IMG/VR virus record: IMGVR_UViG_3300028364_000013 | Direction: 5' to 3' (one strand) | From: a virus | Taxonomy: Duplodnaviria; Caudoviricetes | DNA: 64,000 bases | In this document: positions 2,127 to 20,317 of the stretch, one piece after another | Layout: every line of letters begins with the position of its first letter | Numbering within the stretch: position 1 is the stretch's first letter | The notes under the pieces: model-generated | What the model saw: only the letters and a program-made list of their open reading frames with translations | Told to the model about the DNA's origin: nothing | Databases searched by the model: none | Program-made: the position numbers and the translations under genes

Positions 2127-3092
2127 TGTTCTATATTTATAAAACTCTTGTGATTCTAATTGTTTAAAATTTAATAAATTTAAAACTATTTCAGGAGAAT
2201 TGTTATACAAATCCACAAAATAAATCTCTTTATCAATTTTCCATAAAATTATTAATCCAATATTATTTTCTTTACAATATTTTTCTTTTATTTTATCTCT
2301 TTTCTGTGTCTCTTTTAATTTTTCGATTCCACCGAAATATTCAACAGATTCAAAATGTTGATTTCCATGATATTCTATACACACATTTTGTTTTGGCAAA
2401 TAAAAATCAAATTTTAAATGCAAAATATATTTACAATCATTAAATTTTTTCTCACCTTCCAACTTTACCATGTTTTCTTTTAAAATTTTATAAATCATTT
2501 TTTCTCCATTTGAAAACTTGCACTTAGGACACCCATCGCCTCTTTTATGTGCGTTAGGGGTTTGCTTAAAATCACCATGATTTGAACATATGATAGATAC
2601 TTTTTTCATACAATTATCATAATTAACTTTTGAGTAATCATATTTATCTCCATGAACTAATTTAGAATCAGATATAAACTCTTTCAATGTCAATCTTGAT
2701 TTATTTGCATTTAATTTAATTCCACACTTTATACAACCATATTTTAAATGATTTTTAGGAGTTTGTTTAAACTCTCCATGTTCTGGACAAATAATTTTTA
2801 CTGCTTTTAAAGAATTGTTGTATTGAACTAGAGAGTAATCGTATTTATTTGTATGTATATTCCTCACCTTTTTAATAAATTCTTCAGTCGTTATATTTTT
2901 GTTAACACATTTTGGACACCCCTGTCCTCTAAAATGTTTTTCTGCAGATTGTTCAAAAATACCATGTTCTGAACAAATAATTTCAACCTTCAATTTACTC
3001 CCTAAATATTCAACAAGTGAATAATCATATTTGTATTCATGAATTTTATTTGACCTTTCTGTAAACTCTTCTGTTGTTAGTTTTACTGACAT
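2112..3092 (-). CDS. Free-standing homing endonuclease: Cys/His repeats (CxxHGxFxQ...GC.KC) plus C-terminal PD-(D/E)XK/Vsr-like nuclease
   Basis: Three YDYS.V.Y...IICxxHGxF repeats, then KFDFYLPKQNVCIEYHGNQH; overlaps the recD2 3' end convergently. Confidence 0.8.
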   Translation of the reverse strand: MSVKLTTEEFTERSNKIHEYKYDYSLVEYLGSKLKVEIICSEHGIFEQSAEKHFRGQGCPKCVNKNITTEEFIKKVRNIHTNKYDYSLVQYNNSLKAVKIICPEHGEFKQTPKNHLKYGCIKCGIKLNANKSRLTLKEFISDSKLVHGDKYDYSKVNYDNCMKKVSIICSNHGDFKQTPNAHKRGDGCPKCKFSNGEKMIYKILKENMVKLEGEKKFNDCKYILHLKFDFYLPKQNVCIEYHGNQHFESVEYFGGIEKLKETQKRDKIKEKYCKENNIGLIILWKIDKEIYFVDLYNNSPEIVLNLLNFKQLESQEFYKYRTLRDK

Positions 3093-5103: not shown

Positions 5104-5673
5104 TTATTCTACTCCTAAATCATTTCTCTCTCTATCGAAAAAGTAGTCTCTCGCAACCTGTGAGATGTATTTATTAATCTCCTTTGGCTCAAGTCCAGCG
5201 TCAGCAATAACATCAAGCTCTTCCTTCATAACGTCATTAATTACCATTCTAAGGTAATCACCAAGCTTCGCTCTGTCAACATGCCCTCCGTTGATTAAAT
5301 CAAATGTTTCTGAAAGCATTTGTTCTAAACGCCAATTTGGAGTAACCTTATTTACAGTCTCATGAATTTTATTAAGCTTCTCATTATCAACAACCTTAAG
5401 TGTTTTTACTTTTGACGCACCAGCATGCTTTTCACCTTTGGATTTAAAAATATGTCTTGACCCATCTTCCATTAGACAGGAAAAGACAATCCCTTCACCA
5501 ATCCCTATTTCTTCAAATTCTTTTGCAACAGGACATTCATTTTCAACTTCAAGAGTCATATTAATTATATCATTCTGCACAATATCTGGTCTATTGAAGT
5601 CAATATCCACTTCGTAGGTCTTGAAGTCTTCAATATTATAAATTTTATTTTCTGGTGAACTTAAATTTTTCAT
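5104..5673 (-). CDS. RNA ligase (Rnl2-like), C-terminal part of split gene
   Basis: Nucleotidyltransferase motif IV GEGIVF and motif V FKSKGEKH; continues the 6629-7246 fragment. Confidence 0.75.
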   Translation of the reverse strand: MKNLSSPENKIYNIEDFKTYEVDIDFNRPDIVQNDIINMTLEVENECPVAKEFEEIGIGEGIVFSCLMEDGSRHIFKSKGEKHAGASKVKTLKVVDNEKLNKIHETVNKVTPNWRLEQMLSETFDLINGGHVDRAKLGDYLRMVINDVMKEELDVIADAGLEPKEINKYISQVARDYFFDRERNDLGVE

Positions 5674-5680
5674 GTTTATT

Positions 5681-6577
5681 TTATTTTGTTTTTTTACAAT
5701 ACCAGCCAGTATATTTTAACAAGCCTTTTTTTTCTAACCTTTTTTTGTTTGACCCTAAATTATTATAAATAGGCTCTCCTTTTTCTCTATATGACTTCTT
5801 AAACGCTCCATATGGTAAGTTATTTTTTTTGCAAAATTCTGTAAAATTTTCATTTAAAATGTGATACTTTTTCACATGATTATTATCATATATAAAATAC
5901 TCACTTTTATTAAAATTAACCCCCTTTGTATATCCAACTAACTCTCCAGAAACATATCTTTTATCATCTACTCTAACTTTTAAAACATTACCATTTTTAT
6001 CTCTCACTGTAGCAATTCCAACATTAACTGACATTAGATTGTCGTCATTTGCATATTCTTCTTTACTAACTCTTTTTTTCTCTCCAGTTACATTGTCAAT
6101 AACACTAACTAATCCATTTTTTTCAAAAGTCCTTGTTAGTTGTCCATTTTTAATTCTTTCATCATCATTATTGACTTGAAATGTATTTCCATCTTTATCA
6201 AAAACAGCTATTTTATTTTTTGCAACTCCAAATAAAGAATCATCTTTATCAAAATCTTCTTTTTTTATTTGCCTTCCATTTAAAGAAACATAACCTTTTC
6301 TAAAACCTCCATGACCACCTAACTTTAAATTATAAGTATCATCTCTTTTTATAAAATCTTCATTAACAATTTTTGATTCCATCAATTTCATTTCATCTTC
6401 ACTTTCACAAAAATGTAAAATCCTTTTTTCAAAATTATCAATACCATATTTATTAATAACACGTTTTATATAAAGTCCAGACCCCATATAACCATCATCA
6501 ATATTTATTGTCTTGTGATACCCAACATAAACCATGTTGTTAATCTTATTTTTTATTTCATAAATTGTGTAAAACAT
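5681..6577 (-). CDS. GIY-YIG homing endonuclease
   Basis: [31 protein letters not shown]; own TATTTATA motif (6589-6596). Confidence 0.85.
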
Positions 6578-6628
6578 ATTCTTTTTATTATAAATATCAA
6601 TAAAAAACAGAATACTTACACCAGGCCA

Positions 6629-7246
6629 TTAATTAATTTTTGTCACTACCCAATATGAAGATACTTCCTCATTAAATGGATATACTTTAGCATGGCTAAA
6701 TATAAAAGAGCTTTTCTCTAAATTAGAAATTCCAACATTTTTTTGAATTCCCTTTCCAACCCATTCCATGCATAGCATTATTGTATTTTCTTTTAAATCA
6801 ATATCATTATGTATAGCAAGAGATTTAATCAAATCTATAAAAACTTCTTTTTTTGATTCTGCGAACCAAGCAAAACCTGCATTGTCATTTGTTTCTAATT
6901 TTTTAATTCCCAATATATTTTTTGAAAATTTAGTTTTTTCTCCCTCGTCTTCAACTGTAATATTTGTTTTATCATCAAAAGAAATTTTATATAAAACCTC
7001 TGGAACTGGTGTAATTATTTCATTTTTAGATTGATACCATACCCCTGAAATATCATTATAACAAACTGCTGCAAATGTACCATGTAATTTTATGGTTCCT
7101 TTAAATTTAAGATTAGGTTTTTTAATAGAAGGGTCATATATTGCCTTTCCATTATCATCAAGCCCAGTAAATCCTGCTCTATCGCAAACGCTTTTTACAA
7201 CATTTCTATATTGACCTATTGATGCTGCTGATATAAATTTTTTCAT
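6629..7246 (-). CDS. RNA ligase (Rnl2-like), N-terminal part of split gene
   Basis: Motif I-like KLHGT, QSK, DNAGFA, motif III EWVGKGIQK. Confidence 0.75.
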   Translation of the reverse strand: MKKFISAASIGQYRNVVKSVCDRAGFTGLDDNGKAIYDPSIKKPNLKFKGTIKLHGTFAAVCYNDISGVWYQSKNEIITPVPEVLYKISFDDKTNITVEDEGEKTKFSKNILGIKKLETNDNAGFAWFAESKKEVFIDLIKSLAIHNDIDLKENTIMLCMEWVGKGIQKNVGISNLEKSSFIFSHAKVYPFNEEVSSYWVVTKIN

Positions 7247-8482: not shown

Positions 8483-9223
8483 CTAATTTTTAATTATTTT
8501 ATATTGTCTCTTATGTATTTCTACTTTATCAAGCACAAATTTAGTACTAATTGCTTGAACAAACAAATTAAAAGCATCATCTTTATCAATAACAATAATT
8601 TCAACTGGTTTAACATTACCATCAACCCATTGAATCTTTTTCCATTGCTCATTAGAATAAGTCCCATCAGTTTTGGGCATCTCACCTTTACACACTTTCA
8701 AAGTGAAGTCACTCTTAATTTCAATAAATCTATCTCCAAAGTCAAAATCTGGAATGTATTGTCCATGAGGTGTTTTAAATTTTTTTCTATTTGGTTTTGG
8801 CAAATCAACTCCGTCATTAATTAACCTCTGAAGATATGCTACCTCATAAGAACCAAGAACCTTTCCAGCTTTTGTATTAAAAGTTCTTGACTTACCTATA
8901 ACTGGAAGTCTATCTTCTTTGTCCCAAGCTTCAATTCCACTTTTAGAAATCTGTTCTTTCGACTTTTTAGAATGTTTCCTTCCAGTAAATCCTTTAGTTG
9001 GACCATATACTTCTCTGTTTTTTTTGCAAAGGTCACTCTTGCTAATTTTTGGAACTTTCCATTTATCAAGCCAATATGTTATTGAAAAATCACTTCTATC
9101 AAACAGATTTCCTATATATTTTGCCCCCCTATGCTCTTTTGAATAAAGTTGTATGATTTCTTTTTTTTCTTCTGTAGAAGGCTCTCCCTTTCTTTTATAG
9201 TAAACTCTCTTTCTAACTTGCAG
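8483..9223 (-). CDS. HEG-like protein: HTH + NUMOD3-like + PD-(D/E)XK; no ATG/GTG/TTG start upstream of 8803
   Basis: Frame is open far upstream of the called ORF: PSTEEKKEIIQLY...FTGRKHSKKSKEQIS...GSYEVAYL...YIPDFDFGDRFIEIKS. Confidence 0.65.
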   Translation of the reverse strand: MQVRKRVYYKRKGEPSTEEKKEIIQLYSKEHRGAKYIGNLFDRSDFSITYWLDKWKVPKISKSDLCKKNREVYGPTKGFTGRKHSKKSKEQISKSGIEAWDKEDRLPVIGKSRTFNTKAGKVLGSYEVAYLQRLINDGVDLPKPNRKKFKTPHGQYIPDFDFGDRFIEIKSDFTLKVCKGEMPKTDGTYSNEQWKKIQWVDGNVKPVEIIVIDKDDAFNLFVQAISTKFVLDKVEIHKRQYKIIKN

Positions 9224-9295
9224 CCACTTTGGGCAACCACAAGAAAGATAGATGGAGTTATTTATGAAGGGAACATTAATAAAGGAGAAGATTAA
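9200..9295 (+). pseudogene. C-terminal remnant of an HNH-type endonuclease
   Basis: Manual translation VNSLSNLQPLWATTRKIDGVIYEGNINKGED*, resembling the NLQPLW...N..K end of phage HNH proteins. Confidence 0.5.
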
Positions 9296-9669
9296 TCTAA
9301 AATTATAATAGAATCTATTTGTTTTCTGGTCATATTGACTCTTGAAACTTGAATTAAAACCTCATCTCCAAGCCTATAGCTATCTCCATTATTAAAATCG
9401 TTTATACAATAGTTTTCTTCATCAACAAATAGATTATTGGATTTTAGCCAATCTTCTGAAACCATTGTATCACATCCATTTTCTATTATTTCTATAAAAA
9501 CACCAAACGAATTTACACTGGAAATAATTCCTTTAAATTTCTCTCCAATTTTACTCTTCAGAAACTCGCACTGCTTGTACTTAATGGATTCTCTCTGTGC
9601 TTTAGCAGCTTTTTGTTCTTGTTCACTTAGATGTTCGCACATTTGTGATAATTGTGATTTATTATACAT
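9292..9669 (-). CDS. rnr: RNase R C-terminal part (end of RNB domain + S1 domain)
   Basis: CEHLSEQEQKAAKAQRESIKYKQCEFLKSKIGEKFKGIISSVNSFGVFIE; ATG overlaps the integrase stop (TAATG). Confidence 0.85.
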   Translation of the reverse strand: MYNKSQLSQMCEHLSEQEQKAAKAQRESIKYKQCEFLKSKIGEKFKGIISSVNSFGVFIEIIENGCDTMVSEDWLKSNNLFVDEENYCINDFNNGDSYRLGDEVLIQVSRVNMTRKQIDSIIILD

Positions 9670-10472
9670 TATATAGGTAAATTTACTTTATTTAACATTT
9701 TATTTGAGACATGGGTATATATCTCAGTGGTTTTAGATGATGAGTGACCCGCTATCTTCTGAATAATTCTAAGGTCTGTGCCGCTTTCCAATAGATTTGT
9801 GAAAGAAGAATGGCGTAGTGTGTGAATTGAAGAGTTGTTGTCAATATACTTCTTATATATTTTCTGACAACTACCAACTGAATACTGGTCATAATTTTGA
9901 CCATTAAACAAATAAGTTTTTGGCCTATATTCTTTCCAATAATACCTCAACAACTGCAGCACATAGTTCGATAATGGTACAACCCTATCTTTTCTTCCCT
10001 TAGCATTTTTAATATAAATCAACATTCTGATGGAGTCAATATCTTCTATTTTTAAATTAACAACTTCTGATACACGAAGACCAACTGAATACGTTAAAGT
10101 CAATATTGCTTTATGTTTTAAATTTTCAATCTTTGATAACTTATCTTTAATCAATTCTCCATCTATAACTTTTGGTAACTTCTTTTCTTTCTTTGGCCTC
10201 TTAAAAGATACTTTATCATACTTTTTATTGAGCCCAAACTTATAAAGAAATCTAATTGCGTTAATAACTTGATTTTGTTTTGATATAGAAGTGAAATTAT
10301 AATTATTAAGATATAACTGAAAATCTTTTGAATTGAGGTGAATTATTCTTTTATCACCGCACCAAGTAATAAATTGCTTGATGTAATGGGTATAAATGTC
10401 CTTGGTTCTTTCAGAGTAGTTTAAATATATAAACTTTTGTTCACAAATCTTTACAATTTTTTGATTTAACAT
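9669..10472 (-). CDS. Tyrosine recombinase (XerD/IntI-like, SAM-like N-terminus)
   Basis: Intact catalytic set: GLRVSE (R), AKGRKDR (K), HTLRH (HxxR), AGH, TEIYTH (Y). Confidence 0.92.
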   Translation of the reverse strand: MLNQKIVKICEQKFIYLNYSERTKDIYTHYIKQFITWCGDKRIIHLNSKDFQLYLNNYNFTSISKQNQVINAIRFLYKFGLNKKYDKVSFKRPKKEKKLPKVIDGELIKDKLSKIENLKHKAILTLTYSVGLRVSEVVNLKIEDIDSIRMLIYIKNAKGRKDRVVPLSNYVLQLLRYYWKEYRPKTYLFNGQNYDQYSVGSCQKIYKKYIDNNSSIHTLRHSSFTNLLESGTDLRIIQKIAGHSSSKTTEIYTHVSNKMLNKVNLPI

Positions 10473-10489
10473 CTTATATCAATTTAATA

Positions 10490-10531
10490 ATCAATGATTT
10501 ATAAAAAGGTGTTTATATATAGTCGTTATGT
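10490..10531 (+). other. attI-like half site next to the integrase 5' end
   Basis: gtttatatatagtcGTTATGT: R' core with an attC-like arm but no complementary partner arm. Confidence 0.55.
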
Positions 10532-10693
10532 GGCATTATACCACCACATCTTTTTTGTGATTTTGTGTTTTTTAACTAATTCCTTCGTATGTTCTTTAAT
10601 ATCTTCGTAATCTTTTGAAACTTCATTCAATTTTTCACAAAAAGATACGTAACAATCGTATTCATCATCAATTCTACTTATACTACTTCCCAT
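10526..10693 (-). CDS. Cassette 1 ORF, 55 aa (absent from ORF track)
   Basis: MGSSISRIDDEYDCYVSF...KMWWYNAT*; stop lies in the GTTA core. Confidence 0.55.
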   Translation of the reverse strand: MGSSISRIDDEYDCYVSFCEKLNEVSKDYEDIKEHTKELVKKHKITKKMWWYNAT

Positions 10694-10704
10694 AATTTAA
10701 CGCC

Positions 10705-10825
10705 ACATAACAACGTATATAAAACATTGCTTTAGTGGTCTTTTATTTAGTTTATTAATAATTCAAAATTTGTTGTTTATCTGTTAAGTTTCGGTTGGCA
10801 ACGTTTCATATACAAAACGTTGTGG
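10705..10825 (+). repeat. attC-like site 1
   Basis: ACATAAC..gtatataaaacattgc / gcaacgtttcatatac..GTTGTGG. Confidence 0.8.
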
Positions 10826-10830
10826 TGCAT

Positions 10831-11139
10831 TTAGAAAGAAAGTGCTTCACCTGCAACAACACCAGGGTCGCCATATTTACCTTCATCTTCTTCATCAAAG
10901 TTTTGTATAATTTGAAGAGCCTTTTTATACTTCATAAGGCGTTCAGTTAATGTCTGTTTTGCAAGTTCAATCCATTCACCATTTGGCGAGTGCTTGCAAC
11001 ATAAAATTCCGTTAATCACTTTTTCTTGATAATACATAGTTAAAAAACGCACCACAACAATGTATAACAGCAATAGCGGGTTGTAGTGCTTAATTTTAAC
11101 ACCATTGCTTCTAATTAATATTCTGTTTAATTCAATCAT
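10831..11139 (-). CDS. Cassette 2 hypothetical protein
   Basis: Bounded by GTTGTGGTGC / GCACCACAAC. Confidence 0.6.
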   Translation of the reverse strand: MIELNRILIRSNGVKIKHYNPLLLLYIVVVRFLTMYYQEKVINGILCCKHSPNGEWIELAKQTLTERLMKYKKALQIIQNFDEEDEGKYGDPGVVAGEALSF

Positions 11140-11183
11140 TTGTGCTTTCTAATCCGCTACTGCGGTTATACTCAGCGTTATAA
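11052..11183 (+). repeat. attC-like site 2
   Basis: CCACAAC..gtataacagcaatagcgg / ccgctactgcggttatac..GTTATAA. Confidence 0.8.
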
Positions 11184-11387
11184 GTCATTTAGAACTTCAA
11201 TTCTATGTGGTTCATAATCAATAGGAGTTATATAATACAAACAAGGTATGTTTTTACTCAAACCTCTCATTCCAATCATTACGTCAGAATCATTTTTATA
11301 ATCTACTTTGTCAGATAAAAAACGACTTATAACATCAGCTATATGTAACACCTTTCCATCTTTATCAAATATTTCTAATTTATCCAT
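11178..11387 (-). CDS. Cassette 3 hypothetical protein
   Basis: Bounded by GTTATAAGTC / GACTTATAAC; starts in the attC3 loop, stops in the core. Confidence 0.6.
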   Translation of the reverse strand: MDKLEIFDKDGKVLHIADVISRFLSDKVDYKNDSDVMIGMRGLSKNIPCLYYITPIDYEPHRIEVLNDL

Positions 11388-11457
11388 TGTTTCAGTATTT
11401 TAAGTTAGTATAGTAATCTATCAAGGTCGGCACTACACATAGCCCAAGCGGTTAGGT
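11327..11457 (+). repeat. attC-like site 3
   Basis: TTATAAC..gctatatgta / tacacatagc..GTTAGGT. Confidence 0.75.
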
Positions 11458-12057
11458 TTAATATTCACTAAGTTTAATGCTACCTTCAATCTCATTTCCC
11501 CAAGCATCCCATCCTTGTCTAATATTTCTGGAGAACAATTCTAATTTATTTCCTTTAGATACTTTTTCAATAAGTTCATAAAAGAAGTCTGGTTTTTTTG
11601 AATGGCAAGGGTAGCCGTTTACATATTGTCTTTTTTCTTCAAACCAAGTTCCGTTTATTTTTTCATTTACCAATTCATTAACCTTGCCTTTGGTTGCAAA
11701 AATTAAGTATTCAGTAGACACTTTAAAAGTTCCACCCATTCCGCTACCTATTGGTTTTTTACACCATACAAGGGTTGTAGAGTATTTAAAACCCCAAGCC
11801 TTTACAACTTCTTCCGCTTTCATTAAATACTTATTTGTAACCCACAAATACAAATGACAATTATCAGCAGTCAAGTTTTTAATAGGCAGGTTTACTATGT
11901 CTTCAAATTTCATTGTGTTATAAGGCAAGTCTGCAGACTTATCGCTTTTTGGATTAAACACTTGTACCCCATTTTCTTTTTTGTAACCACCGCTTAATGG
12001 TCTCCCTGCTTTTTGCTCCCAAGCTGGGTCTGCATATATTATATTGTATTTATTCAT
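11458..12057 (-). CDS. Cassette 4: MT-A70 family methyltransferase
   Basis: IIYADPAW, CHLYLWVT, WGFKY, HSKKP, LELFSR, GWDAWGNE. Confidence 0.88.
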   Translation of the reverse strand: MNKYNIIYADPAWEQKAGRPLSGGYKKENGVQVFNPKSDKSADLPYNTMKFEDIVNLPIKNLTADNCHLYLWVTNKYLMKAEEVVKAWGFKYSTTLVWCKKPIGSGMGGTFKVSTEYLIFATKGKVNELVNEKINGTWFEEKRQYVNGYPCHSKKPDFFYELIEKVSKGNKLELFSRNIRQGWDAWGNEIEGSIKLSEY

Positions 12058-12087
12058 ATTTATTCTTTAAAATCCGTTCATACTAAA

Positions 12088-12141
12088 ACCTAACAATGTG
12101 TAAAACGGCATTAAAACGACCGTTTACACTAGGCGTTGTAA
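12088..12141 (+). repeat. attC-like site 4 (54 bp)
   Basis: ACCTAAC..gtgtaaaacgg / ccgtttacac..GTTGTAA, one extrahelical A. Confidence 0.8.
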
Positions 12142-12156
12142 GTAATTGGTTTTTAC

Positions 12157-12381
12157 CTACTGCGTATCTGCATAAGCACATTCATTACATTTTCTTTCCA
12201 CATATACAGCAGTGTTTTCGCAACTATCACAAACCAACTCCGTACAACACCGTGTATAAATAATAGCTTGCTTATTTCTGTCTTTTAAGATTACGTAAGC
12301 TTCATCGCTTATTTTGTTATCTTGGTGCAACCTATCAAGTGTAAATCCTGTTTGGATAAGTTGGTTATTTGTTTCGTTCAT
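12157..12381 (-). CDS. Cassette 5 hypothetical protein (Cys-rich C-terminus)
   Basis: Starts inside the attC5 loop. Confidence 0.55.
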   Translation of the reverse strand: MNETNNQLIQTGFTLDRLHQDNKISDEAYVILKDRNKQAIIYTRCCTELVCDSCENTAVYVERKCNECAYADTQ

Positions 12382-12437
12382 TTTTATAAAATTTAGTTGT
12401 TATTAATCGCTACTATTCATACACAAATCAGTTGTAG
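12242..12437 (+). repeat. attC-like site 5
   Basis: GTACAAC..gtgtataaataatagc / gctactattcatacac..GTTGTAG. Confidence 0.75.
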
Positions 12438-12443
12438 TGAATG

Positions 12444-12635
12444 CTACAATCCTACCTTTGATTTAAGTTCAGATATTGACATCCAGCTTTTAATTGATTT
12501 TGGTTGAACCCAATCGCTTTCCATGTCTGCTTTGAACATTCCATCTTTGTAATAGGCAAATTCAAGTACTCCACTAATATGTTCAACCAACACCCTTGTC
12601 ATATTTTCGGGTAATTCTAAATCTGTATTTTTCAT
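12444..12635 (-). CDS. Cassette 6 hypothetical protein
   Basis: Bounded by GTTGTAGTGAATGC / GCACTCACTACAAC (13/14 complementary). Confidence 0.6.
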   Translation of the reverse strand: MKNTDLELPENMTRVLVEHISGVLEFAYYKDGMFKADMESDWVQPKSIKSWMSISELKSKVGL

Positions 12636-12670
12636 TTCAATTATACATTTAAGTTAATAATCCGCACTCA

Positions 12671-12735
12671 CTACAACACTTTGTATAGTGCATAGCTCGT
12701 GCCTCACTACGACACCATACAAGATGCCGTTGTAG
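12671..12735 (+). repeat. attC-like site 6 (65 bp)
   Basis: CTACAAC..ttgtatagtg / caccatacaa..GTTGTAG. Confidence 0.78.
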
Positions 12736-12747
12736 GTAATAAATTTA

Positions 12748-12930
12748 CTACTCTTGTGGTTCAAGAATGTCATAAGCATCTCTTATACATCCTTTTAATG
12801 TTGTGGCAACTGTTTGCATCCTAAAAGCACCGTTGTAATCTTCGGCTTTTATCTTATCATCAATTAAGCCTTGTAAATGTTGCCACTTGGTTTGCCATTC
12901 TTCAATCTGTTGTTTCAATTTATCTTCCAT
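12748..12930 (-). CDS. Cassette 7 hypothetical protein
   Basis: Bounded by GTTGTAGGT / ACCTACAAC. Confidence 0.6.
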   Translation of the reverse strand: MEDKLKQQIEEWQTKWQHLQGLIDDKIKAEDYNGAFRMQTVATTLKGCIRDAYDILEPQE

Positions 12931-12972
12931 TATATTTTTAAGTTTAGTGTTTCAATTCTGCAGGATTACTAC

Positions 12973-13028
12973 CTACAACAAAGGCTATAAAGCCATACAA
13001 GTACAGGCTCATAGCCTAGACATTATAT
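12973..13028 (+). repeat. attC-like site 7 (core variant ATT)
   Basis: CTACAAC..ggctataaagcc / ggctcatagcc..ATTATAT. Confidence 0.7.
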
Positions 13029-13038
13029 GCAATAAAAA

Positions 13039-13314
13039 TTACTTACGTCTTGGGTCTTCATCACACCATAGTTTATAACAATTAACTTTTCGCTTTATTA
13101 ACCGTGCTTTGTCTTGGATTTCTTCAAGGTTGGTAGCTGTTAATATAGCATCTAATGACACACTTCCACCACTACTGTCATCTAAATATCTTCCAAGCCA
13201 AACACTACCTTCGTCCGCTAATTCGTGCATTTTTGCATAATCAGGGAAACATTCTTTTACTTCTTTAATTAATTTTTGTGAGTACATAATCGTAATTTTA
13301 AAAGCATATAACAA
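13039..13314 (-). CDS. Cassette 8 hypothetical protein
   Basis: Bounded by (A)TTATATGC / GCATATAAC; true start may be internal (MYSQKLIK). Confidence 0.6.
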   Translation of the reverse strand: MLYAFKITIMYSQKLIKEVKECFPDYAKMHELADEGSVWLGRYLDDSSGGSVSLDAILTATNLEEIQDKARLIKRKVNCYKLWCDEDPRRK

Positions 13315-13434
13315 CGTGTATATTTTATTGCTACATACCGCCTATCTAAAGGCTTGTTAATATTTATTCAGTTCTGTTCTTATTTAAAGTTTATTGATAC
13401 CTATACGCAACAAAGCATACACAAACCGTTACCA
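13306..13434 (+). repeat. attC-like site 8
   Basis: ATATAAC..gtgtatattttattgc / gcaacaaagcatacac..GTTACCA. Confidence 0.75.
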
Positions 13435-13438
13435 AACA

Positions 13439-13729
13439 TTAAATAACTTGGTACATCATTCCTGCAACTTGTGGCCCGTGTGTGTCATACGCTTTATCAT
13501 AAGCATCATTACTATCTTCTGCCTCTATTTCAAACGTCCATCCGTCTTTCCCTTCTGATTCAAACCAGAATAAATAACGTTTGGTAACACTATCTATAGG
13601 TAATGTCTGCCCTAGCTTTAGTGCTTGTAAGCGAAATTCAAATTCGTTTAAGAACTCTTGGTCTGTTGGTGTTCCTCCGATACCCTCCATTCCTTTTACT
13701 ATGTCAATTACTTTTTCTGATATATTCAT
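13439..13729 (-). CDS. Cassette 9 hypothetical protein
   Basis: Bounded by GTTACCAAAC / GTTTGGTAAC; N-terminal half encoded in the attC9 loop. Confidence 0.6.
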   Translation of the reverse strand: MNISEKVIDIVKGMEGIGGTPTDQEFLNEFEFRLQALKLGQTLPIDSVTKRYLFWFESEGKDGWTFEIEAEDSNDAYDKAYDTHGPQVAGMMYQVI

Positions 13730-13786
13730 GATTAATTTTTAGTTATTTAAGTCGGGCAAAAAATACCCATAGATTTAACGTTAGCA
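13582..13786 (+). repeat. attC-like site 9 (205 bp)
   Basis: TGGTAAC..tctataggta / tacccataga..GTTAGCA. Confidence 0.7.
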
Positions 13787-13787
13787 T

Positions 13788-14036
13788 TCATAGTATTTGC
13801 CTTTCATCTATTGGTTTTTGGCATTCAATACAGTAAGGCGTACCATTTTCATCATTATCTCTACCTTTAGCCTGTGAGCATCGGCAAAATAACGAAATGC
13901 TAACATCAGGTATGGAGCAGTTTTTTACTCGCTCCTGGTCACATTCATTCCACACCTTCAACAGTGCTTGTTGTACGCTTGTACTATTGGGATAAGCTGT
14001 TTCAGCCTGTATCTCTTTTATTCTTTCAGTTGTCAT
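13788..14036 (-). CDS. Cassette 10 hypothetical protein (Zn-finger-like C-terminus)
   Basis: Bounded by GTTAGCATT / AATGCTAAC; CRC...CIEC. Confidence 0.6.
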   Translation of the reverse strand: MTTERIKEIQAETAYPNSTSVQQALLKVWNECDQERVKNCSIPDVSISLFCRCSQAKGRDNDENGTPYCIECQKPIDERQIL

Positions 14037-14096
14037 ACAATAAAGTTTAGTGTTTCAAATCCGTAAAAAATCCGCTCCATACCCCTAGCGTTATAT
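13898..14096 (+). repeat. attC-like site 10
   Basis: TGCTAAC..ggtatggagc / gctccatacc..GTTATAT. Confidence 0.8.
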
Positions 14097-14161
14097 GCAA
14101 TGCTACGTTATCACTTCGTATTAAGTTTCATCATAACATTCCCTTTGTTTTTCCACCGAAC

Positions 14162-14725
14162 TTATAATTCTAAATCCATATTAAATGGTTTAAAATTATT
14201 ATCTTCAATCATTTTCCTAACTCTTGGATGAAATTTATAAAATATTGAATTTGGTAAATCAATATCCCAATCCATCACGTCTATTAATTTGTTAATAATT
14301 CTACCTTGGAATATTTCATCTACATTTTCTATAAATAATTCATCAAAAGGAAAATGGACATTTCCAAATGTTGAATACATTTCAACCCAATCTAATATTT
14401 CTTTTTCTAATCTACTGTAATCATATCTAACTAAATCTTTTACTAATAGTTCGTTTTCACTATGTGCTATTATCTGACCACCATAGTCTAATAATTCTTT
14501 TCTATAAAGTTTCTTATGATTATCAGATATTTCTTTATACATTTTCTCAGGCATCTCACTACCATTTTCTATGTTTTTATTAACAAATGTTAAAAACTCT
14601 TTATCATCCCATAAATCATCTGAACTTGGTTCATAATTCATATCCTTTAAATTGCCATCTTGGTCAATATATGCTTCATTCAAATATTCACGTATAGTCG
14701 TTGCTATAAATTTTCTTAATTCCAT
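14162..14725 (-). CDS. Cassette 11 hypothetical protein with own TATTTATA motif
   Basis: MELRKFIATTIREYLNE N-terminus; cassette bounded by GTTATATGC / GCATATAAC. Confidence 0.7.
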   Translation of the reverse strand: MELRKFIATTIREYLNEAYIDQDGNLKDMNYEPSSDDLWDDKEFLTFVNKNIENGSEMPEKMYKEISDNHKKLYRKELLDYGGQIIAHSENELLVKDLVRYDYSRLEKEILDWVEMYSTFGNVHFPFDELFIENVDEIFQGRIINKLIDVMDWDIDLPNSIFYKFHPRVRKMIEDNNFKPFNMDLEL

Positions 14726-14841
14726 AATAATAAATAGTTTAATCTATATATAAATAATCACTTTTTAATATTCCACCCACAAAAATAAAACAAAAAGGCT
14801 TCGTTCTTCGTATCAGCATTTGTGGTTAAAATCCGCACAGC

Positions 14842-14859
14842 ATATAACAAGTGTTAGTT
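14842..14859 (+). repeat. Collapsed attC-like site 11
   Basis: ATATAAC-aagt-GTTAGTT: both cores present, stem and loop missing. Confidence 0.6.
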
Positions 14860-15111
14860 GCAATGCTGTGGGTTTTTGCAACCTTCGTAGTGTTCCATAT
14901 CGCTTCCGTAACCGTTATACCACAAAACATATTCGCAATTTCTAACTTTTACTATTTGTAAGTCTGCCTTCCATTTAGGGTTGCTTATGTACATTTCTCT
15001 GTTATCTTTTTCTTGCTCAATATTTTCTTTGGTTTCATCTCCACAAGAAGAAAGCACAGCAACTAACACAAAATATAGCGTATAACTTAATTTCGTTCTT
15101 AAATTTTTCAT
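14854..15111 (-). CDS. Cassette 12 putative lipoprotein
   Basis: Hydrophobic signal ending VAVLSS-C; bounded by GTTAGTTGC / GCAACTAAC. Confidence 0.6.
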   Translation of the reverse strand: MKNLRTKLSYTLYFVLVAVLSSCGDETKENIEQEKDNREMYISNPKWKADLQIVKVRNCEYVLWYNGYGSDMEHYEGCKNPQHCN

Positions 15112-15192
15112 CTGTTCTGTTTTTAAAGTTTATTAATTATTAAAAGTTTTGTGCTGTTTTTGTCGTTACACACCATATTCAACACGTTATCG
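15061..15192 (+). repeat. attC-like site 12
   Basis: AACTAAC..aatatagcgtataac / gttacacaccatatt..GTTATCG. Confidence 0.7.
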
Positions 15193-15204
15193 GCAAATGC
15201 TACA

Positions 15205-15378
15205 TTACTTCTTCGTATCAATATTTACGTTAGAAGTTTTTATTTTTTGCCCACGCTCTTTGATTAACTTACGTATTTCAGTTTCACATAAGTTTTTACG
15301 ACTTCTACCATCTTCTTTAGCAATAGCATCAAGAATATCAGTTTCATCTCTATCTAAATGTATTTCTATTCTTACCAT
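15205..15378 (-). CDS. Cassette 13 RHH/Arc-like protein, 57 aa (absent from ORF track)
   Basis: MVRIEIHLDRDETDILDAIAKEDGRSRKNLCETEIRKLIKE; TAATG coupling to the upstream ORF. Confidence 0.65.
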   Translation of the reverse strand: MVRIEIHLDRDETDILDAIAKEDGRSRKNLCETEIRKLIKERGQKIKTSNVNIDTKK

Positions 15379-15695
15379 TAATCAATCATTTTAATTGATG
15401 AGTATGCAATGTTCCAAACCTCTCCATTTTCTCTTTTACATTTAACTTTCTTTGGATTTAGTTTTAAAACTTCCCAAATTTCACCTTTAAATTTATCACT
15501 AGCAACGGAAACTATGTCTCCTACTTTCAAATCGGTTTTTGATTTTTCTTTCCGTTCCAATTTAATTTGATATTCTTGTTCACGAATAAGTCTATTTGCA
15601 TCAGCAATTACTTTGTTCAATTCATCTAATGATAATCCAGTCAAGTCTATTTTACTTTCAGTATTTATCGTTGCCAGTTCTTGTAGTAAATTCAT
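15378..15695 (-). CDS. Cassette 13 hypothetical protein (coiled-coil + SH3/KOW-like)
   Basis: DLKVGDIVSV...IWEVLKLNPKKVKC; own TAAGTTTG promoter at 15731-15738. Confidence 0.6.
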   Translation of the reverse strand: MNLLQELATINTESKIDLTGLSLDELNKVIADANRLIREQEYQIKLERKEKSKTDLKVGDIVSVASDKFKGEIWEVLKLNPKKVKCKRENGEVWNIAYSSIKMID

Positions 15696-15851
15696 CTTAT
15701 TTTGTTTTAGTGTTATAGTTAATCATACGACAAACTTACGATAAAGTTTCGTATAAACCAAATCTTTTTCAATTATTTTTCTTCCGACCCTAAAAAATAA
15801 AAACTTATTTAGTGCTTCGTATTGAAATTAAGATAGATAATCCGCATCAGC

Positions 15852-15916
15852 CGATAACATTTTGTATATTTCAGTTTGCGAAAAGCAAACCGATAACATA
15901 CAATTTGCCGTTACCC
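15852..15916 (+). repeat. attC-like site 13 (65 bp)
   Basis: CGATAAC..ttgtatatttcagtttgc / gcaaaccgataacatacaa..GTTACCC. Confidence 0.78.
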
Positions 15917-15922
15917 TTAATA

Positions 15923-16420
15923 CTAGACATCTGTTTTCATAAAAGACATCCAATGCGTATTTGAGCGTTTACCTGATTTGTGTCCAAATAATGGTTGATG
16001 GCCAATGGCATTTAATATTTGAGTAACTGTAATTTGGGTTTCGTTCCATTTGAATATTAAAGTCCCATAAGGCTCTAAAACTCGCATACATTCATTAAAT
16101 CCAGTTTTTATATCTAATTCCCAAGTAGGTAATAAAACACCATACTTTTTAGCCATCCAACTGTCTTTTCCTAACTTATTTAAGTGTGGTGGGTCAAATA
16201 CTACCATTTTGAAAGTATTGTCTTTAAATGGCATATCTCTAAAATCAACCTCAATATCAGGTTTAACCTCTATTGTTCTAATTCCAGTATTTACGCTACT
16301 ATCTTTTACTTCTACGGTTTCCGTTCTTATGTCAGCAAATAAAACATTAGGGTTTGTTTTGTCAAACCAGAACATTCTACTTCCGCAACAAGCATCTAAT
16401 ATTTTTTTATCTGTATTCAT
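15923..16420 (-). CDS. Cassette 14: class I SAM-dependent (putative DNA) methyltransferase
   Basis: ILDACCGSRMFWF, VVFDPPHL, GTLIFKW. Confidence 0.85.
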   Translation of the reverse strand: MNTDKKILDACCGSRMFWFDKTNPNVLFADIRTETVEVKDSSVNTGIRTIEVKPDIEVDFRDMPFKDNTFKMVVFDPPHLNKLGKDSWMAKKYGVLLPTWELDIKTGFNECMRVLEPYGTLIFKWNETQITVTQILNAIGHQPLFGHKSGKRSNTHWMSFMKTDV

Positions 16421-16454
16421 TATTCAAATTTCGTTTTTAATCAACCCGTACTAA

Positions 16455-16521
16455 GGGTAACAATTTGTATAATGCATAATTTGTAAAAACAAATTCCGAC
16501 ACCATACAATAGCCGTTAGCG
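16455..16521 (+). repeat. attC-like site 14 (67 bp)
   Basis: GGGTAAC..ttgtataatg / caccatacaa..GTTAGCG. Confidence 0.78.
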
Positions 16522-16528
16522 GTAATGG

Positions 16529-16759
16529 TCAGACGTTGTATCTAACAGCAGATGCCATTGCTATCAACAATAGTATTCCTGTTATAATAGCACCATCTGT
16601 TCCGAACATTTGTCCTATACAAAACATTACACCACCTGCCAATATTGTTGATACAAACATATACCATCCAGTTCCACTTTTAGGCTTTAATAAACCACTA
16701 CCGCTAACAAAGGGTTTATTAAATGGCTCAGTTTCGTTTTTCAAATTATCTTTTTCCAT
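16529..16759 (-). CDS. Cassette 15 two-TM membrane protein
   Basis: Bounded by GTTAGCGGTAATGG / CCACTACCGCTAAC (16695-16708); its attC lacks a right arm. Confidence 0.6.
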   Translation of the reverse strand: MEKDNLKNETEPFNKPFVSGSGLLKPKSGTGWYMFVSTILAGGVMFCIGQMFGTDGAIITGILLLIAMASAVRYNV

Positions 16760-16859
16760 ATTTTAAAGTTTTATGATTCTAATTAATTTTTGTGCGTAAA
16801 GTAACATTAAGTTAATTATCATAAAATATGATGAAAGTATATCTAAAAAAATAAATAAG

Positions 16860-18422
16860 CTATTGTCCGCCATTCATATAATACCACAATAATCTATGAC
16901 TCAAAATATCGCTGTATCTTCTTATTGGTGATGTAAAGTGACTATAGTGCTTGAATCCGAGTCCATAGTGACCAATTATTTGAGTTGAATAAACTGCTTT
17001 CGACATTGAGCGAATAGCTAACGTTGAAATCATTGCTTCCTCACCACTTCCAGACGCTTTCTTCAACATCTCGTTGAGAGATGCTTTGGTAGCTTCCATG
17101 CTTCCTGAAGTATTAAAGTGATAACCGAACTGAGATACGAATAAACTTAACTCATGCAGTTTCTCTTCACTTGGAAGGTCGTGTGTTCTATATACGAATG
17201 GCTTGGTAAGTCCGTGTGCATAAGTTGCAACATACTTGTTAGCCAATAACATGTACTCTTCAATAAGTTGATGAGCATCTGCAGATTCATGAAAGAAAAC
17301 ATCTATTGGAACATTGTCCTCATCAAGAACAAAGTTTGGCTCTCTTCTGTTGAAGGTGACCGCTCCATCTTTAAATCTTTTCTTTCTAACTTTCTTTGCA
17401 ATGCCATTCAATATTTTCACACAATCGAATACTCCCATCCCTGGTGGAACGCTTTCTATTCTGTCGGCAGTTCCTTCTATAATCTCTTGCGCTTCTTCAT
17501 ACGTCAATCTACAATCAGAGTTGATTACAGTCTTCTTGAAATTGTGCTTAACAACTTCTCCATCTGGAGACATCTGAAAGATAACCGAGAATGTCAGTTT
17601 TTCTTCATTTGGTCGTAAGCTACAGATTCCATTAGAAAGCCTCTCTGGGAGCATTGGAATACATCTATCAACAAGATAAACTGAAGTCGCTCTTCTAAAT
17701 GCTTCCTTATCCAATTCACTTCCTGGTCTAACATAATGTGTTACATCAGCAATGTGAACTCCAATCTCGTAATTCCCATTATCCAATTTCTTGAATGATA
17801 TTGCATCATCAAAATCTTTTGCACTGTCTGGGTCAATGGTGATTGTCAAATCTCCACGCATATCTCTACGCTTAAGAATCTCCTTTTCAGAAATCTCAAC
17901 TGGAATGTCTTCAGCTTCTTTCATAACTGCATCAGAGAAATCATAATCAATATTATGCTTAAACATAATGCTGTTCATTTCAGTCTCGTGAGTTTCAGCT
18001 GCGCCAATCACTTTTGTGACAATACCTTTTGGGCTTTTGTCCTTCTTGTGCCATCGGTGCAATTTAACAACCACAACCTCTCCATCCTTAGCGCCATTTA
18101 GGTGCTCCATTGGAACATAGAAATCTACTGGCATCTTACCTCCAGAAGTTCTAACAAAAGCAAATCCCTTTTCTTCATTGATGTCAATTACACCAGAGAA
18201 TTCAGTTTTGCTTCTATCTTCAACTCTTTCTACTATACCTTGTTCTCCAGTACCTTTTCCGCTTTCGTCTTTAACAATTGACACTGTGACCTTATCTCCA
18301 TGAAGAGCTTGGCCTGTATTTTTTTTGTGAATGAACAAATCATCATTGCCTTCTAATATTAAGTAAGCATGACCGTTTCTTATAAACTCTATTGTTCCTT
18401 CAGTTTGTTTTAATTTTTTCAT
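16860..18422 (-). CDS. rnr: RNase R N-terminal part (cold-shock domains + RNB catalytic domain)
   Basis: ALHGDKV, TIDPDSAKDFDDAIS (catalytic Asp), HIADV, IEEYMLLAN, HFTSPIRRY; stops at YYMNGGQ* before the S1 domain. Confidence 0.92.
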   Translation of the reverse strand: MKKLKQTEGTIEFIRNGHAYLILEGNDDLFIHKKNTGQALHGDKVTVSIVKDESGKGTGEQGIVERVEDRSKTEFSGVIDINEEKGFAFVRTSGGKMPVDFYVPMEHLNGAKDGEVVVVKLHRWHKKDKSPKGIVTKVIGAAETHETEMNSIMFKHNIDYDFSDAVMKEAEDIPVEISEKEILKRRDMRGDLTITIDPDSAKDFDDAISFKKLDNGNYEIGVHIADVTHYVRPGSELDKEAFRRATSVYLVDRCIPMLPERLSNGICSLRPNEEKLTFSVIFQMSPDGEVVKHNFKKTVINSDCRLTYEEAQEIIEGTADRIESVPPGMGVFDCVKILNGIAKKVRKKRFKDGAVTFNRREPNFVLDEDNVPIDVFFHESADAHQLIEEYMLLANKYVATYAHGLTKPFVYRTHDLPSEEKLHELSLFVSQFGYHFNTSGSMEATKASLNEMLKKASGSGEEAMISTLAIRSMSKAVYSTQIIGHYGLGFKHYSHFTSPIRRYSDILSHRLLWYYMNGGQ

Positions 18423-18425
18423 GTT

Positions 18426-18686
18426 TTATTTTCTATTTCTACAGTCAACTTCTGTTGCTGTTATCACTTGATGCATAGAAACCCATACATCATTTCCCGC
18501 CTCGTCATTACCTCTTATGTAACCATCATGCACGCTTCCTCCATAAACCCACATTGCACTTCCATCCACAAGTTGGACATCAAGCCTTGTTTTACAGTCA
18601 TAAGAGTTTGTTGTTTTACCGACACCCTCACAAGAATTTAATACAAATGTAAGCAATGCAAAGCAGATAATAAGTAAATTTTTCAT
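18426..18686 (-). CDS. Putative lipoprotein
   Basis: Signal ending FVLNS-C. Confidence 0.6.
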   Translation of the reverse strand: MKNLLIICFALLTFVLNSCEGVGKTTNSYDCKTRLDVQLVDGSAMWVYGGSVHDGYIRGNDEAGNDVWVSMHQVITATEVDCRNRK

Positions 18687-18708
18687 TTTTTATTTTTTGA
18701 TTCTTTTG

Positions 18709-18737
18709 TTTATACGTTTTTTATGGAAGAATGTTCC
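18709..18737 (-). promoter_or_regulatory. ECF-type promoter upstream of lipoprotein-rnr-cassette run
   Basis: GGAAC-N16-CGTATAA on the minus strand. Confidence 0.65.
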
Positions 18738-18745
18738 TAAAACCT

Positions 18746-20317
18746 TTAATAATTTATATTCTCTGGTCTCATTTGAGGGAAAAATAACACATCTTGAATT
18801 GATTTTTGTTCAGTTAAAATCATTACCAATCTATCAATTCCAATACCAAGACCTGCAGTAGGAGGCATCCCATATTCCAATGCTCTCAAGAAATCTTCAT
18901 CCATACCCATAGCTTCATCATCACCTGCTCCAGCAAGACGAAGTTGCTCTTCAAACCTTTCTCTCTGGTCAATTGGGTCATTAAGCTCACTATAAGCATT
19001 AGCAACTTCTTTACCATTGATTACAAGTTCAAATCTTTCAACTATGCCAGCGTCTGTTCTATGCTTTTTAGCAAGCGGAGACATCTCAACTGGATAATCG
19101 TATACAAACGTTGGTTGAATCAATTTAGGCTCAACAAACTCTCCGAAAATTTCATCAAGAAGCTTCGCTCTACCCATAGAGTTATCAACATGGATTTCAT
19201 GACCAGCAAGAAATACTCTAAGCTCATTATCTGTCATGCTCATTGCTTGACATCCAGAATATCTTTCAATCGCATCAAAGAACTTTATTTTTTCGAATTC
19301 TCCAAAGAAGCTAATTTTATTCTCTCCGAACACAGCTTCAACATCATCAACAATTGAGAATGCTGCTTTTTTTACAATCTGCTCACAAAAGTCCATCATC
19401 CACATATAATCTCTATTGGCTGCGTACAACTCAACTTGAGTAAACTCTGGATTATGGAACCTGCTCATTCCTTCGTTTCTGAAATCTTTAGCAAATTCAT
19501 ACACTCTTTCGAATCCTCCAACAATCAACCTCTTAAGATATAGCTCATTGGCAATTCTCAAATAAAGAGGAATGTCCAATTTATTGTGATGTGTCATAAA
19601 AGGCTTTGCGGTTGCACCACCATGAATTGGCTGTAAAACTGGAGTCTCAACTTCCATGAAAAATTCTTCATCCAATACTTCACGTATTGTTCGAATTATT
19701 CGTGTTCTATCTCTAAATACTTTTTTTGAATCTGGGTTTACCACAAGGTCAACATATCTTTGACGATACTTCATCTCTTGGTTCTCAAAAGAATCGTGAA
19801 CATTTCCTTCCTCATCTTTCTTAACAGTAGGAAGAGGTTTTAAAGACTTAGAAAGTATTGTAAACTTTGTTGCACGAATAGTTAGTTCACCAGTTTGAGT
19901 GACAAACATTTTACCTTCAACACCAACAAAGTCACCAAGGTCAACCAGTTTCTTAAAAACTGTATTGTACATTGTTTTGTCTTCGTCTGGACAAAGCTCG
20001 TCTCTTGAGATGAACACTTGCATTCTTCTTTCTGAATCATCTTGTAATTTAAAGAAAGATGCTTTTCCCATTATGTTCTTACTCATTAGCCTTCCAGACA
20101 ACTTAACAGTCCTTCCCATGTGCTCAATTTGAAGTTCTGTCGAAAAATGTTGAAGCGTATCAAACATTTCCCAAACACTTGTACAATCATATCTTATACG
20201 AGCTCCATTCTCAACATCATTGATAAACGGCTCAGCTGGATAAGGATTAATACCCAGGTCAATCATCGCTTGAAGATGCTCTCGTCTTACTATTTCTTGT
20301 TCTGATAATTTACGCAT
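18746..20317 (-). CDS. lysS: Lysyl-tRNA synthetase (class II)
   Basis: OB anticodon domain, YRQRYVDL, FMEVETPVL, YLRIANELYLKRL, FRNEG, GLGIGIDRL. Confidence 0.96.
   Translation of the reverse strand: MRKLSEQEIVRREHLQAMIDLGINPYPAEPFINDVENGARIRYDCTSVWEMFDTLQHFSTELQIEHMGRTVKLSGRLMSKNIMGKASFFKLQDDSERRMQVFISRDELCPDEDKTMYNTVFKKLVDLGDFVGVEGKMFVTQTGELTIRATKFTILSKSLKPLPTVKKDEEGNVHDSFENQEMKYRQRYVDLVVNPDSKKVFRDRTRIIRTIREVLDEEFFMEVETPVLQPIHGGATAKPFMTHHNKLDIPLYLRIANELYLKRLIVGGFERVYEFAKDFRNEGMSRFHNPEFTQVELYAANRDYMWMMDFCEQIVKKAAFSIVDDVEAVFGENKISFFGEFEKIKFFDAIERYSGCQAMSMTDNELRVFLAGHEIHVDNSMGRAKLLDEIFGEFVEPKLIQPTFVYDYPVEMSPLAKKHRTDAGIVERFELVINGKEVANAYSELNDPIDQRERFEEQLRLAGAGDDEAMGMDEDFLRALEYGMPPTAGLGIGIDRLVMILTEQKSIQDVLFFPQMRPENINY

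Follow-up and report, generated by a model that had tools for sequence, protein, structure and literature searches.

In a stretch of 64,000 nucleotides (nt) of viral DNA (Duplodnaviria; Caudoviricetes; IMG/VR record IMGVR_UViG_3300028364_000013), referred to here as the window, the gene for RNase R (rnr) is found as two intact open reading frames (ORFs) that are separated by a gap of 7191 nt. It is very probable that rnr became a gene in pieces through the action of a mobile homing-endonuclease module and that the gap was later taken over by an integron-like platform, made up of an array of cassettes and a tyrosine recombinase gene. The window is part of a large phage-like contig from lake water; among contigs with these proteins, the longest measures 364 kb.

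An RNase R Encoded in Two Pieces

The genes in question are all read from the minus strand, in the order lysS, a gene for a lipoprotein of 86 amino acids (aa), the rnr N-part, about 14 small ORFs, the tyrosine recombinase gene and, finally, the rnr C-part. The two halves and the point at which the second one begins are:

16860-18422, minus strand: rnr N-part, 520 aa, with two OB/cold-shock domains and a complete RNB catalytic domain
9292-9669, minus strand: rnr C-part, 125 aa, with an N-terminal helix (residues 1-36) and then an S1 domain
9667-9671, minus strand: right junction TAATG, in which the TAA of the recombinase gene overlaps the ATG of the C-part; also present in the related loci L086, L087 and L088

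In Pfam searches, the N-part matches OB_RNB, CSD2 and RNB (E 3e-110), while the C-part matches S1 (E 3e-10). The motif DPDSAKDFDD is present in the N-part, whose C-terminus reads ...HRLLWYYMNGGQ before the stop codon; the split-specific tail at this end is ...RYSDILSHRLLWYYMNGGQ, again directly followed by the stop. The C-part begins with MYNKSQLSQMCEHL, and this head is also specific to the split. In the NCBIfam RNase_R model (TIGR02063), positions 64-578 are covered by the N-part and positions 590-706, separately, by the C-part. Thus, the halves are complementary. On its own, the N-part scores 553 bits against NCBIfam RNase_R, which is under the cut-off of 598. Unlike in a standard RNase R, then, S1 is not on the catalytic polypeptide but in a separate 125-aa ORF located 7.2 kb away. 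A first-pass annotation of this DNA had already described the two intact ORFs, with the catalytic motif in one and S1 in the other, as well as the TAATG overlap between an integrase stop and the C-part start; both descriptions are exact. Its impression that the C-part is richer in AT also holds, the GC content being 29.1% in the C-part and 37.7% in the N-part.

That annotation had further proposed an alignment with unsplit homologs. A related viral contig, L001, contains an unsplit, syntenic rnr (L001:10001-11953) that encodes 650 aa, is 72% identical to that of the window and has the same neighbors, namely, a lipoprotein gene upstream and exonuclease and RNA ligase genes downstream. The two halves in the window are collinear with this gene, and nothing has been lost. 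The break sits in the linker after ...HRLLW, where the 20 linker residues of the unsplit protein have as their counterpart 7 residues that close the N-part and 13 that open the C-part. In the solved RNase R 8cdu, which is the nearest structure (E 3.6e-131 for the unsplit relative), the split point corresponds to a loop whose length varies, with the RNB core on one side and the pre-S1 helix on the other.

Inteins and split inteins were ruled out by length, as the two halves add up to 645 aa (520 + 125) compared with 650 aa for the unsplit protein, leaving no surplus residues. In the window and in the related loci L083, L085 and L091, no Rfam family, and so no recognizable intron, was found.

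An Endonuclease Relic and the Order of Events

The evidence for the order in which the split and the array came about lies in the few dozen nucleotides at either edge of the gap. On the left, these are:

16803-16892, plus strand: relic of a DUF723/PHROG559 homing-endonuclease-like gene, consisting of its last 29 codons and stop
16801-16805, minus strand: left junction; the homology to endonuclease-bearing alleles ends at AAT/GTTAC (16806/16805), and the array starts at a GTT that is like an R' box

The relic is identical at 20 of its 29 residues to the C-terminus of the 306-aa endonuclease-like protein of L085, and the nucleotide alignment between the window and L085 continues through the stop of the N-part. 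It is antisense to the N-part and overlaps its last ten codons and stop; therefore, the tail of the N-part is encoded antisense to the end of the endonuclease. Past the N-part stop, approximately 55 nt are common to the window and the endonuclease-bearing alleles. The GTT at which this homology ends resembles the crossover box of the hairpin sites in the array. On the right, in alleles that carry the endonuclease and in alleles with an empty gap, the ATG of the C-part is preceded by an A-rich leader and, at a distance of 25-60 nt, by a TAAATTTG-type motif; we take this motif to resemble the Bacteroidota -7 promoter box. In the window, the recombinase ORF is found in place of this upstream region. 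With a relic at the left and the upstream region lost at the right, most of the endonuclease gene and the original upstream region of the C-part have therefore given way to the platform.

As read from these junctions, the array arrived second and did not make the split. The first-pass annotation had favored the reverse order, in which an intact rnr was split by the cassette array, from which the C-part would also take its start codon. It is true that the array separates the halves in the window and that the stop of the recombinase gene overlaps the C-part ATG. Nevertheless, such an origin is very improbable because the endonuclease relic lies between the N-part and the array, and because the same stop-bearing tail and MYN start are found in split alleles that are free of the array. 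In addition, M1 and Y2 are invariant across 20 stand-alone C-parts, most of them without an integrase upstream, which speaks against a start codon supplied by the element. What the array supplies to the C-part is only its upstream expression context. Since the C-part has lost its own upstream region and the TAATG overlap is in place, it is probably translated via coupling to the recombinase, as the last cistron of an array/recombinase transcript.

It had also been suggested that the element excises and restores rnr; such an element would be an intervening element of the skin or nifD type or a switch similar to active lysogeny. A tyrosine recombinase located at one end of a 7-kb insertion within a gene is in agreement with this idea. 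However, no flanking direct repeat was found at the ends of the element, and the N-part has its own stop and a tail that is unlike the unsplit linker. Moreover, alleles in which the gap is just 50 or 6 nt are still split, with the stop, the ATG and the split-specific tails all present. A search for the rejoined gene, which the annotation had called for, was made in Logan contigs of four lake or salt-lake runs, and no contig from these runs connects ~16860 to ~9669. Excision that would rebuild the gene is, consequently, extremely improbable.

Distribution of the Split and Contents of the Gap

The split is old and widespread. In protein searches, N-parts without S1 account for 18 of the first 58 rnr clusters, with lengths of 508-534 aa; over all the protein searches, such N-parts measure 508-538 aa, with identities down to approximately 50%. 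Stand-alone C-parts form 22 clusters of 115-171 aa (most of them 124-125 aa) that are 48-85% identical to the C-part of the window, and every one of them starts with MY(N/S/K)..L..(M/I)CEHL. The same split, defined by the stop-bearing N tail and the MYN start, is present in at least 10 other phage loci. Three further searches added little: a scan of viral contigs with the C-part alignment returned four loci only, all of them already known or distant; exact and degenerate junction patterns gave nothing or just the known 97-kb contig among metagenome contigs, and nothing among viral contigs; and a megablast of positions 9000-19000 against a phage collection gave no match.

What fills the gap differs between loci. 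In L082, L085, L091, L094 and L095, it contains a gene on the reverse strand for an endonuclease-like protein of 274-306 aa, accompanied by an ORF of 50-52 aa. The protein has DUF723/DUF4379 zinc-finger repeats and a nuclease-like C-terminus; in L085 it matches PHROG 559 (E 1.5e-75), and further matching PHROGs are annotated as homing endonucleases. This intervening gene, a putative endonuclease by family, is thus intact in five related loci, broken in a sixth (L097) and reduced to the 29-codon relic in the window. In L096, the gap holds two small ORFs, while in L083/L084 it has shrunk to 50 nt, out of frame, and in L041 to 6 nt with two stops. An array with a recombinase is found in the gap only in the window, in L086 and L089, and in L087 and L090. 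Ribosomal bypass of the T4 gene 60 type was considered for the 50-nt gap and rejected, given that there are no matching take-off and landing codons and that the ATG is invariant.

Two further observations concern the endonuclease family and its companion. A full-length DUF723/PHROG559 paralog (326 aa, 48% identity) is located at 2112-3092 of the window, on the minus strand; therefore, the family is still present in this genome. The 50-aa ORF beside the endonuclease gene of L085 has a weak match to RHH_1 (E 0.016).

Probable Spread of a Split Module

The sequences next to the junction do not follow the rest of the gene. Overall, the split alleles nearest to the window (P0012, P0015 and P0024) are 72-75% identical to it, compared with 72-80% for unsplit alleles, whereas the last 20 residues of their N-parts are 75-90% identical to those of the window, compared with 50-55% for unsplit alleles. 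Among class-A split alleles in general, these 20 residues are 75-100% identical to one another and 50-55% identical to the unsplit sequences. On the other side of the gap, identity over the first 15 C-part residues is 53-100% between split alleles (67-100% without P0143, the most distant one), as against 40-47% to unsplit alleles. The likeness is confined to this head, as the rest of the C-part shows no such pattern. In other split classes, the divergent tracts are longer, at 120-160 aa.

By contrast with the common tails, the split alleles are scattered on the tree. A quick tree was made from the first ~400 residues, without the 100 residues nearest to the junction and without seven split rows that lack the SPIRR motif. 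On this tree, 9 changes are required for 11 split rows (shuffled mean, 10.3), and most split alleles have an unsplit sister. Scattered alleles with common junction tails point to a mobile split module. The pattern fits horizontal spread with co-conversion, as in intronless homing, and subsequent decay of the endonuclease; it is from this pattern that we infer homing.

Scattering might also be expected if the split had arisen repeatedly and independently in a linker that tolerates breakage, with no single mobile module, and the existence of several tail classes (GGQ, ..FLNKGK and ..GYLKK, each followed by the stop) may be read in the same way. Such repeated origins are nonetheless quite improbable. 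All C-parts begin with MY(N/S/K) at the same position, tails within a class are far more alike than the gene bodies to which they are attached, and at least three tail classes contain an endonuclease gene of one and the same family, oriented alike and overlapping the stop of the N-part.

Selection on Both Halves and Their Predicted Re-association

Judging from ratios of nonsynonymous to synonymous substitution (dN/dS) of 0.04-0.26, both halves evolve under purifying selection. None of the catalytic residues D197, D203, D205 and D206 varies among 18 split N-parts, and pairwise dN/dS between N-parts of split alleles is 0.07-0.26; in the cleanest pair, the window and L089, dN is 0.071 and dS 0.50, for a ratio of 0.14. 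For most pairs of C-parts, dN/dS is 0.04-0.15, and in the cleanest pair, L083 and L091 (98% aa identity), a dS of 0.31 accompanies a ratio of 0.043.

The halves were also submitted together, with alignments, to complex prediction. The resulting interaction prediction score from aligned errors (ipSAE) was 0.84, with 0.00 for the best control, although this value may reflect only the likeness to the solved single-chain RNase R. For reference, a mark of 0.84 is attained by 58 of 80 solved complexes and by 2 of 110 mismatched pairs. Between runs, at least 95% of contacts agree, and the predicted local distance difference test (pLDDT) of the partner is at least 86. In the predicted interface, C-part residues 1-36 lie on RNB residues 242-252, 475-480 and 502-514. 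Most likely, then, the halves re-assemble non-covalently through docking of the first helix of the C-part on the RNB domain. The earlier proposal of a split enzyme kept under selection agrees with these data, in that both ORFs stay intact down to approximately 50% identity, their dN/dS is low and a complex is predicted.

Some considerations weigh against this picture of two working halves brought about by a homing module. Between the window and L086, the dN/dS of the C-part is weaker, at 0.30 (measured over the 81 codons that diverge). In general, dS is saturated in many pairs, and mosaicism blurs pairwise dN/dS. Re-assembly comes from a model and is what homology to a single-chain enzyme would lead one to expect, and S1 may not be needed for the RNB core and its OB domains to work, in which case the C-part could be dispensable here. 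Finally, the endonuclease activity and the homing attributed to the DUF723 protein are deduced from family membership and distribution.

An alternative that follows from several of these points is that the C-part of the window is an unexpressed leftover and that the N-part, with OB and RNB, works alone, the array having deleted the promoter of the C-part. Truncated E. coli RNase R without S1 retains nuclease activity; the TAAATTTG promoter-like region of other alleles is gone from the window; and the dN/dS between the window and L086 is weaker than elsewhere. Even so, a dead C-part is unlikely. At least three variants with the array, found in different samples, retain its ORF intact, and its exact abutment with the recombinase gene in TAATG suits coupled translation. 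As for the window and L086, the first 44 codons of their C-parts are identical, and dN/dS is still below 1.

The Cassette Array and Its Recombinase

The platform that now occupies the gap consists of:

10473-16802, minus strand: integron-like array made up of about 14 cassettes with small ORFs and, after each, an imperfect attC-like hairpin (..AAC ... GTT..)
16529-16759, minus strand: first ORF of the array, 76 aa, membrane-like, with its hairpin at 16452-16523
9669-10472, minus strand: Xer/IntI-like tyrosine recombinase, 267 aa, the terminal gene of the array, with Pfam matches to Phage_integrase and Phage_int_SAM_4

The cassette array noted in the first pass is real, with an attC-like hairpin after each small ORF. 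As is the hallmark of cassettes, the sequence following each GTT is complementary to that preceding the next AAC, and the hairpin stems show compensatory changes. The cargo includes an MT-A70 methyltransferase and another methyltransferase. In one two-gene cassette, the second ORF (15205-15378, minus strand; 57 aa) resembles a ribbon-helix-helix protein. A 17-nt repeat, AGTTTAGTGTTTCAA.T on the plus strand, is located just upstream of several cassette ORFs, at approximately 12941-12957, 14044-14060 and 16730-16746, and may be a phage-specific promoter or leader element.

Hairpin sites were searched for with a covariance model built from five sites in the window, since ungapped and simple gapped hairpin finders, as well as a loose regular expression, missed most sites or were too noisy. 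The model, which detects hairpins with short loops but not those whose loops measure 100-350 nt, yielded 114 sites in related viral loci, every one of them on the strand of the recombinase; 106 of 111 hairpin sites, in 47 loci, are upstream of the recombinase gene. The latter is the last gene of the array, downstream of the cassettes and oriented as they are, and not at the promoter-proximal head as in integrons.

The recombinase scores 169 bits against XerA_Arch (cut-off 220), 153 bits against integrase_gron TIGR02249 (cut-off 265) and 100 bits against PRK15417 (cut-off 435). Because it aligns to integron-integrase profiles in two stretches, it is consistent with a protein that lacks the IntI-specific insert. 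It has more than 100 relatives, every one of which ends in ..LPI before the stop, and the 3' end ..KVNLPI, followed by the stop, is common to all 80 relatives in unrelated contexts. In other phage contexts too (L009, L036 and L033), the next ORF starts on or right after the recombinase stop, as TAATG or TAAATG; therefore, the platform seems to have its right edge at the very stop codon.

The ends of the platform have been exchanged recently. From ~16961 to ~16540, the window is about 100% identical to two related phages, and the arrays differ beyond this point. When the window is compared with L086, L089 and L090, the 3' end of the N-part with the first cassette, and the recombinase gene with the first 132 nt of the C-part, are 94-100% identical, as against 75-90% for the flanking genes, and cassettes past the first are unrelated. 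These values imply, therefore, that the ends were exchanged not long ago and that the content of the array turns over.

The platform has also been observed next to rnr in more distant relatives. In L041 (L041:3403-5346 and L041:6500-10810), a split rnr with its 6-nt gap is followed by cassettes and then by the recombinase gene, and in L068/L069 (L068:8884-12823), the array and recombinase gene are followed, after approximately 1.2 kb, by an unsplit rnr of 660 aa. The neighborhood of rnr thus seems to be a recurrent home of the platform, which in these distant relatives adjoins the gene and is not inside it.

The lake and salt-lake contigs offer two more observations. Contigs of runs X1, X3 and X4 match the recombinase gene until 12 nt before its stop (position 9681) and then continue into unrelated sequence; therefore, a near-identical recombinase gene is present in another context in the same lake samples. 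A contig joint from 10901 to 9522, with 24 other letters between them, was seen in runs X1 and X5. Many joints with short sides (20-32 nt) inside the array were not used, as they are probably hairpin sequences of other arrays.

Proposed History

Taken together, these observations may be arranged into the following history. A split module would have entered the variable linker that joins the RNB core to the last helix and S1. In its original form, the module would have been a free-standing DUF723/PHROG559 homing-endonuclease-like gene on the opposite strand, and it would have brought a stop and a short tail for the upstream half and an ATG and a head (MYN...) for the downstream half, so that two polypeptides would be translated separately. 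Through a homing-like process with short co-conversion tracts, the module would then have spread horizontally into many rnr lineages of related large phages, in which the split appears to persist after the endonuclease has decayed. In the lineage of the window, a 7.1-kb platform with about 14 cassettes and its terminal Xer/IntI-like recombinase would later have taken over the gap. Its arrival would have removed the endonuclease gene, save for the last 29 codons, and the promoter-like region of the C-part, leaving a left junction at a GTT and a right junction that sets the recombinase stop on the C-part ATG.

Perhaps the whole platform is a mobile unit that entered the gap by a recombinase-type crossover at a GTT in the endonuclease gene and is now held there, since the distal half of rnr depends on transcription and translation through it, as a sort of "operon hostage". 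This is a tentative proposal, and one that we consider somewhat doubtful.

Other Features of the Window

In addition to the genes discussed above, the window encodes a RecD2 helicase, a terminase ATPase, sigma factors, lysS and several homing-endonuclease-like genes. The RNA ligase gene is seemingly also in pieces (5104-7246, minus strand), with a 205-aa N-part at 6629-7246, a 189-aa ORF at 5104-5673 and a GIY-YIG endonuclease gene (5681-6577) between them; in the relatives L001 and L082, the ligase is encoded by a single gene of 354-355 aa. The ORF for the terminase large subunit (28179-29081, minus strand; 300 aa) contains the ATPase domain alone. The nuclease half may be separately encoded, which would make this another split gene.

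Relation to Known Systems and Significance

The closest precedent is nrdA of the Aeromonas phage Aeh1, which is split by mobE into two polypeptides (nrdA-a/mobE/nrdA-b) that need their insertion-derived tails in order to assemble (Friedrich et al. 2007; Crona et al. 2011, PMC3045599). As in that case, a free-standing homing-endonuclease-like gene is found in a phage enzyme gene (in related loci here, with a relic in the window), the two polypeptides would be translated separately with no intron or intein, and the insertion seems to have created new C- and N-terminal tails. In contrast to Aeh1, the target is RNase R, and the cut falls between the catalytic core and the RNA-binding domain and not through the active site. 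The endonuclease also differs from MobE, as it belongs to DUF723/PHROG559 and is antisense and overlapping with the stop of the N-part. Moreover, the rnr split has spread to many lineages and outlives the endonuclease, whose place in the window is now taken by a cassette array.

Environmental phage-like DNA is known to contain fractured genes with split inteins and a free-standing endonuclease (Dassa et al. 2009, PMC2677866). These are similar to rnr in that an endonuclease gene separates the two pieces of a broken gene, but the rnr halves carry no intein halves. Canonical integron fragments and attC clusters have been described in phages (Qi et al. 2023, PMC9892861), although not inside a two-piece gene, which is where the present platform sits. 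The latter resembles integrons in its cassettes of an ORF and a hairpin, its AAC...GTT boxes, its complementary cassette ends, the variable content between close relatives and the SAM_4 domain of its recombinase. It differs from them in a recombinase without the IntI insert that scores below both integron-integrase cut-offs and is encoded at the 3' end of the array. With sigK skin of B. subtilis, the nifD element of Anabaena and the regulatory switches of phages, it shares the presence of a recombinase-bearing element between parts of a gene. Unlike in skin and nifD, each rnr part is a complete ORF with its own stop or start, and alleles free of the element are still split, so excision would not rebuild the gene. 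In literature searches, no report of a split phage RNase R was found.

The locus thus corrects a tempting misreading, according to which the array split the gene or its excision repairs it. It would add RNase R and a DUF723-type endonuclease to the very few documented phage enzyme genes that an endonuclease has split into two working pieces. It also makes visible the life cycle of a split module, from invasion and decay to loss of the endonuclease with the split remaining, and then to re-occupation by a different mobile system. In addition, it preserves a dated junction, readable at the sequence level, of an integron-like platform that came to a new site, and this bears on how cassette arrays move in phages. 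If the platform is indeed mobile and held in place by the gene that it interrupts, other mobile DNA in large phages would find landing pads in the gaps of genes that endonucleases have split.

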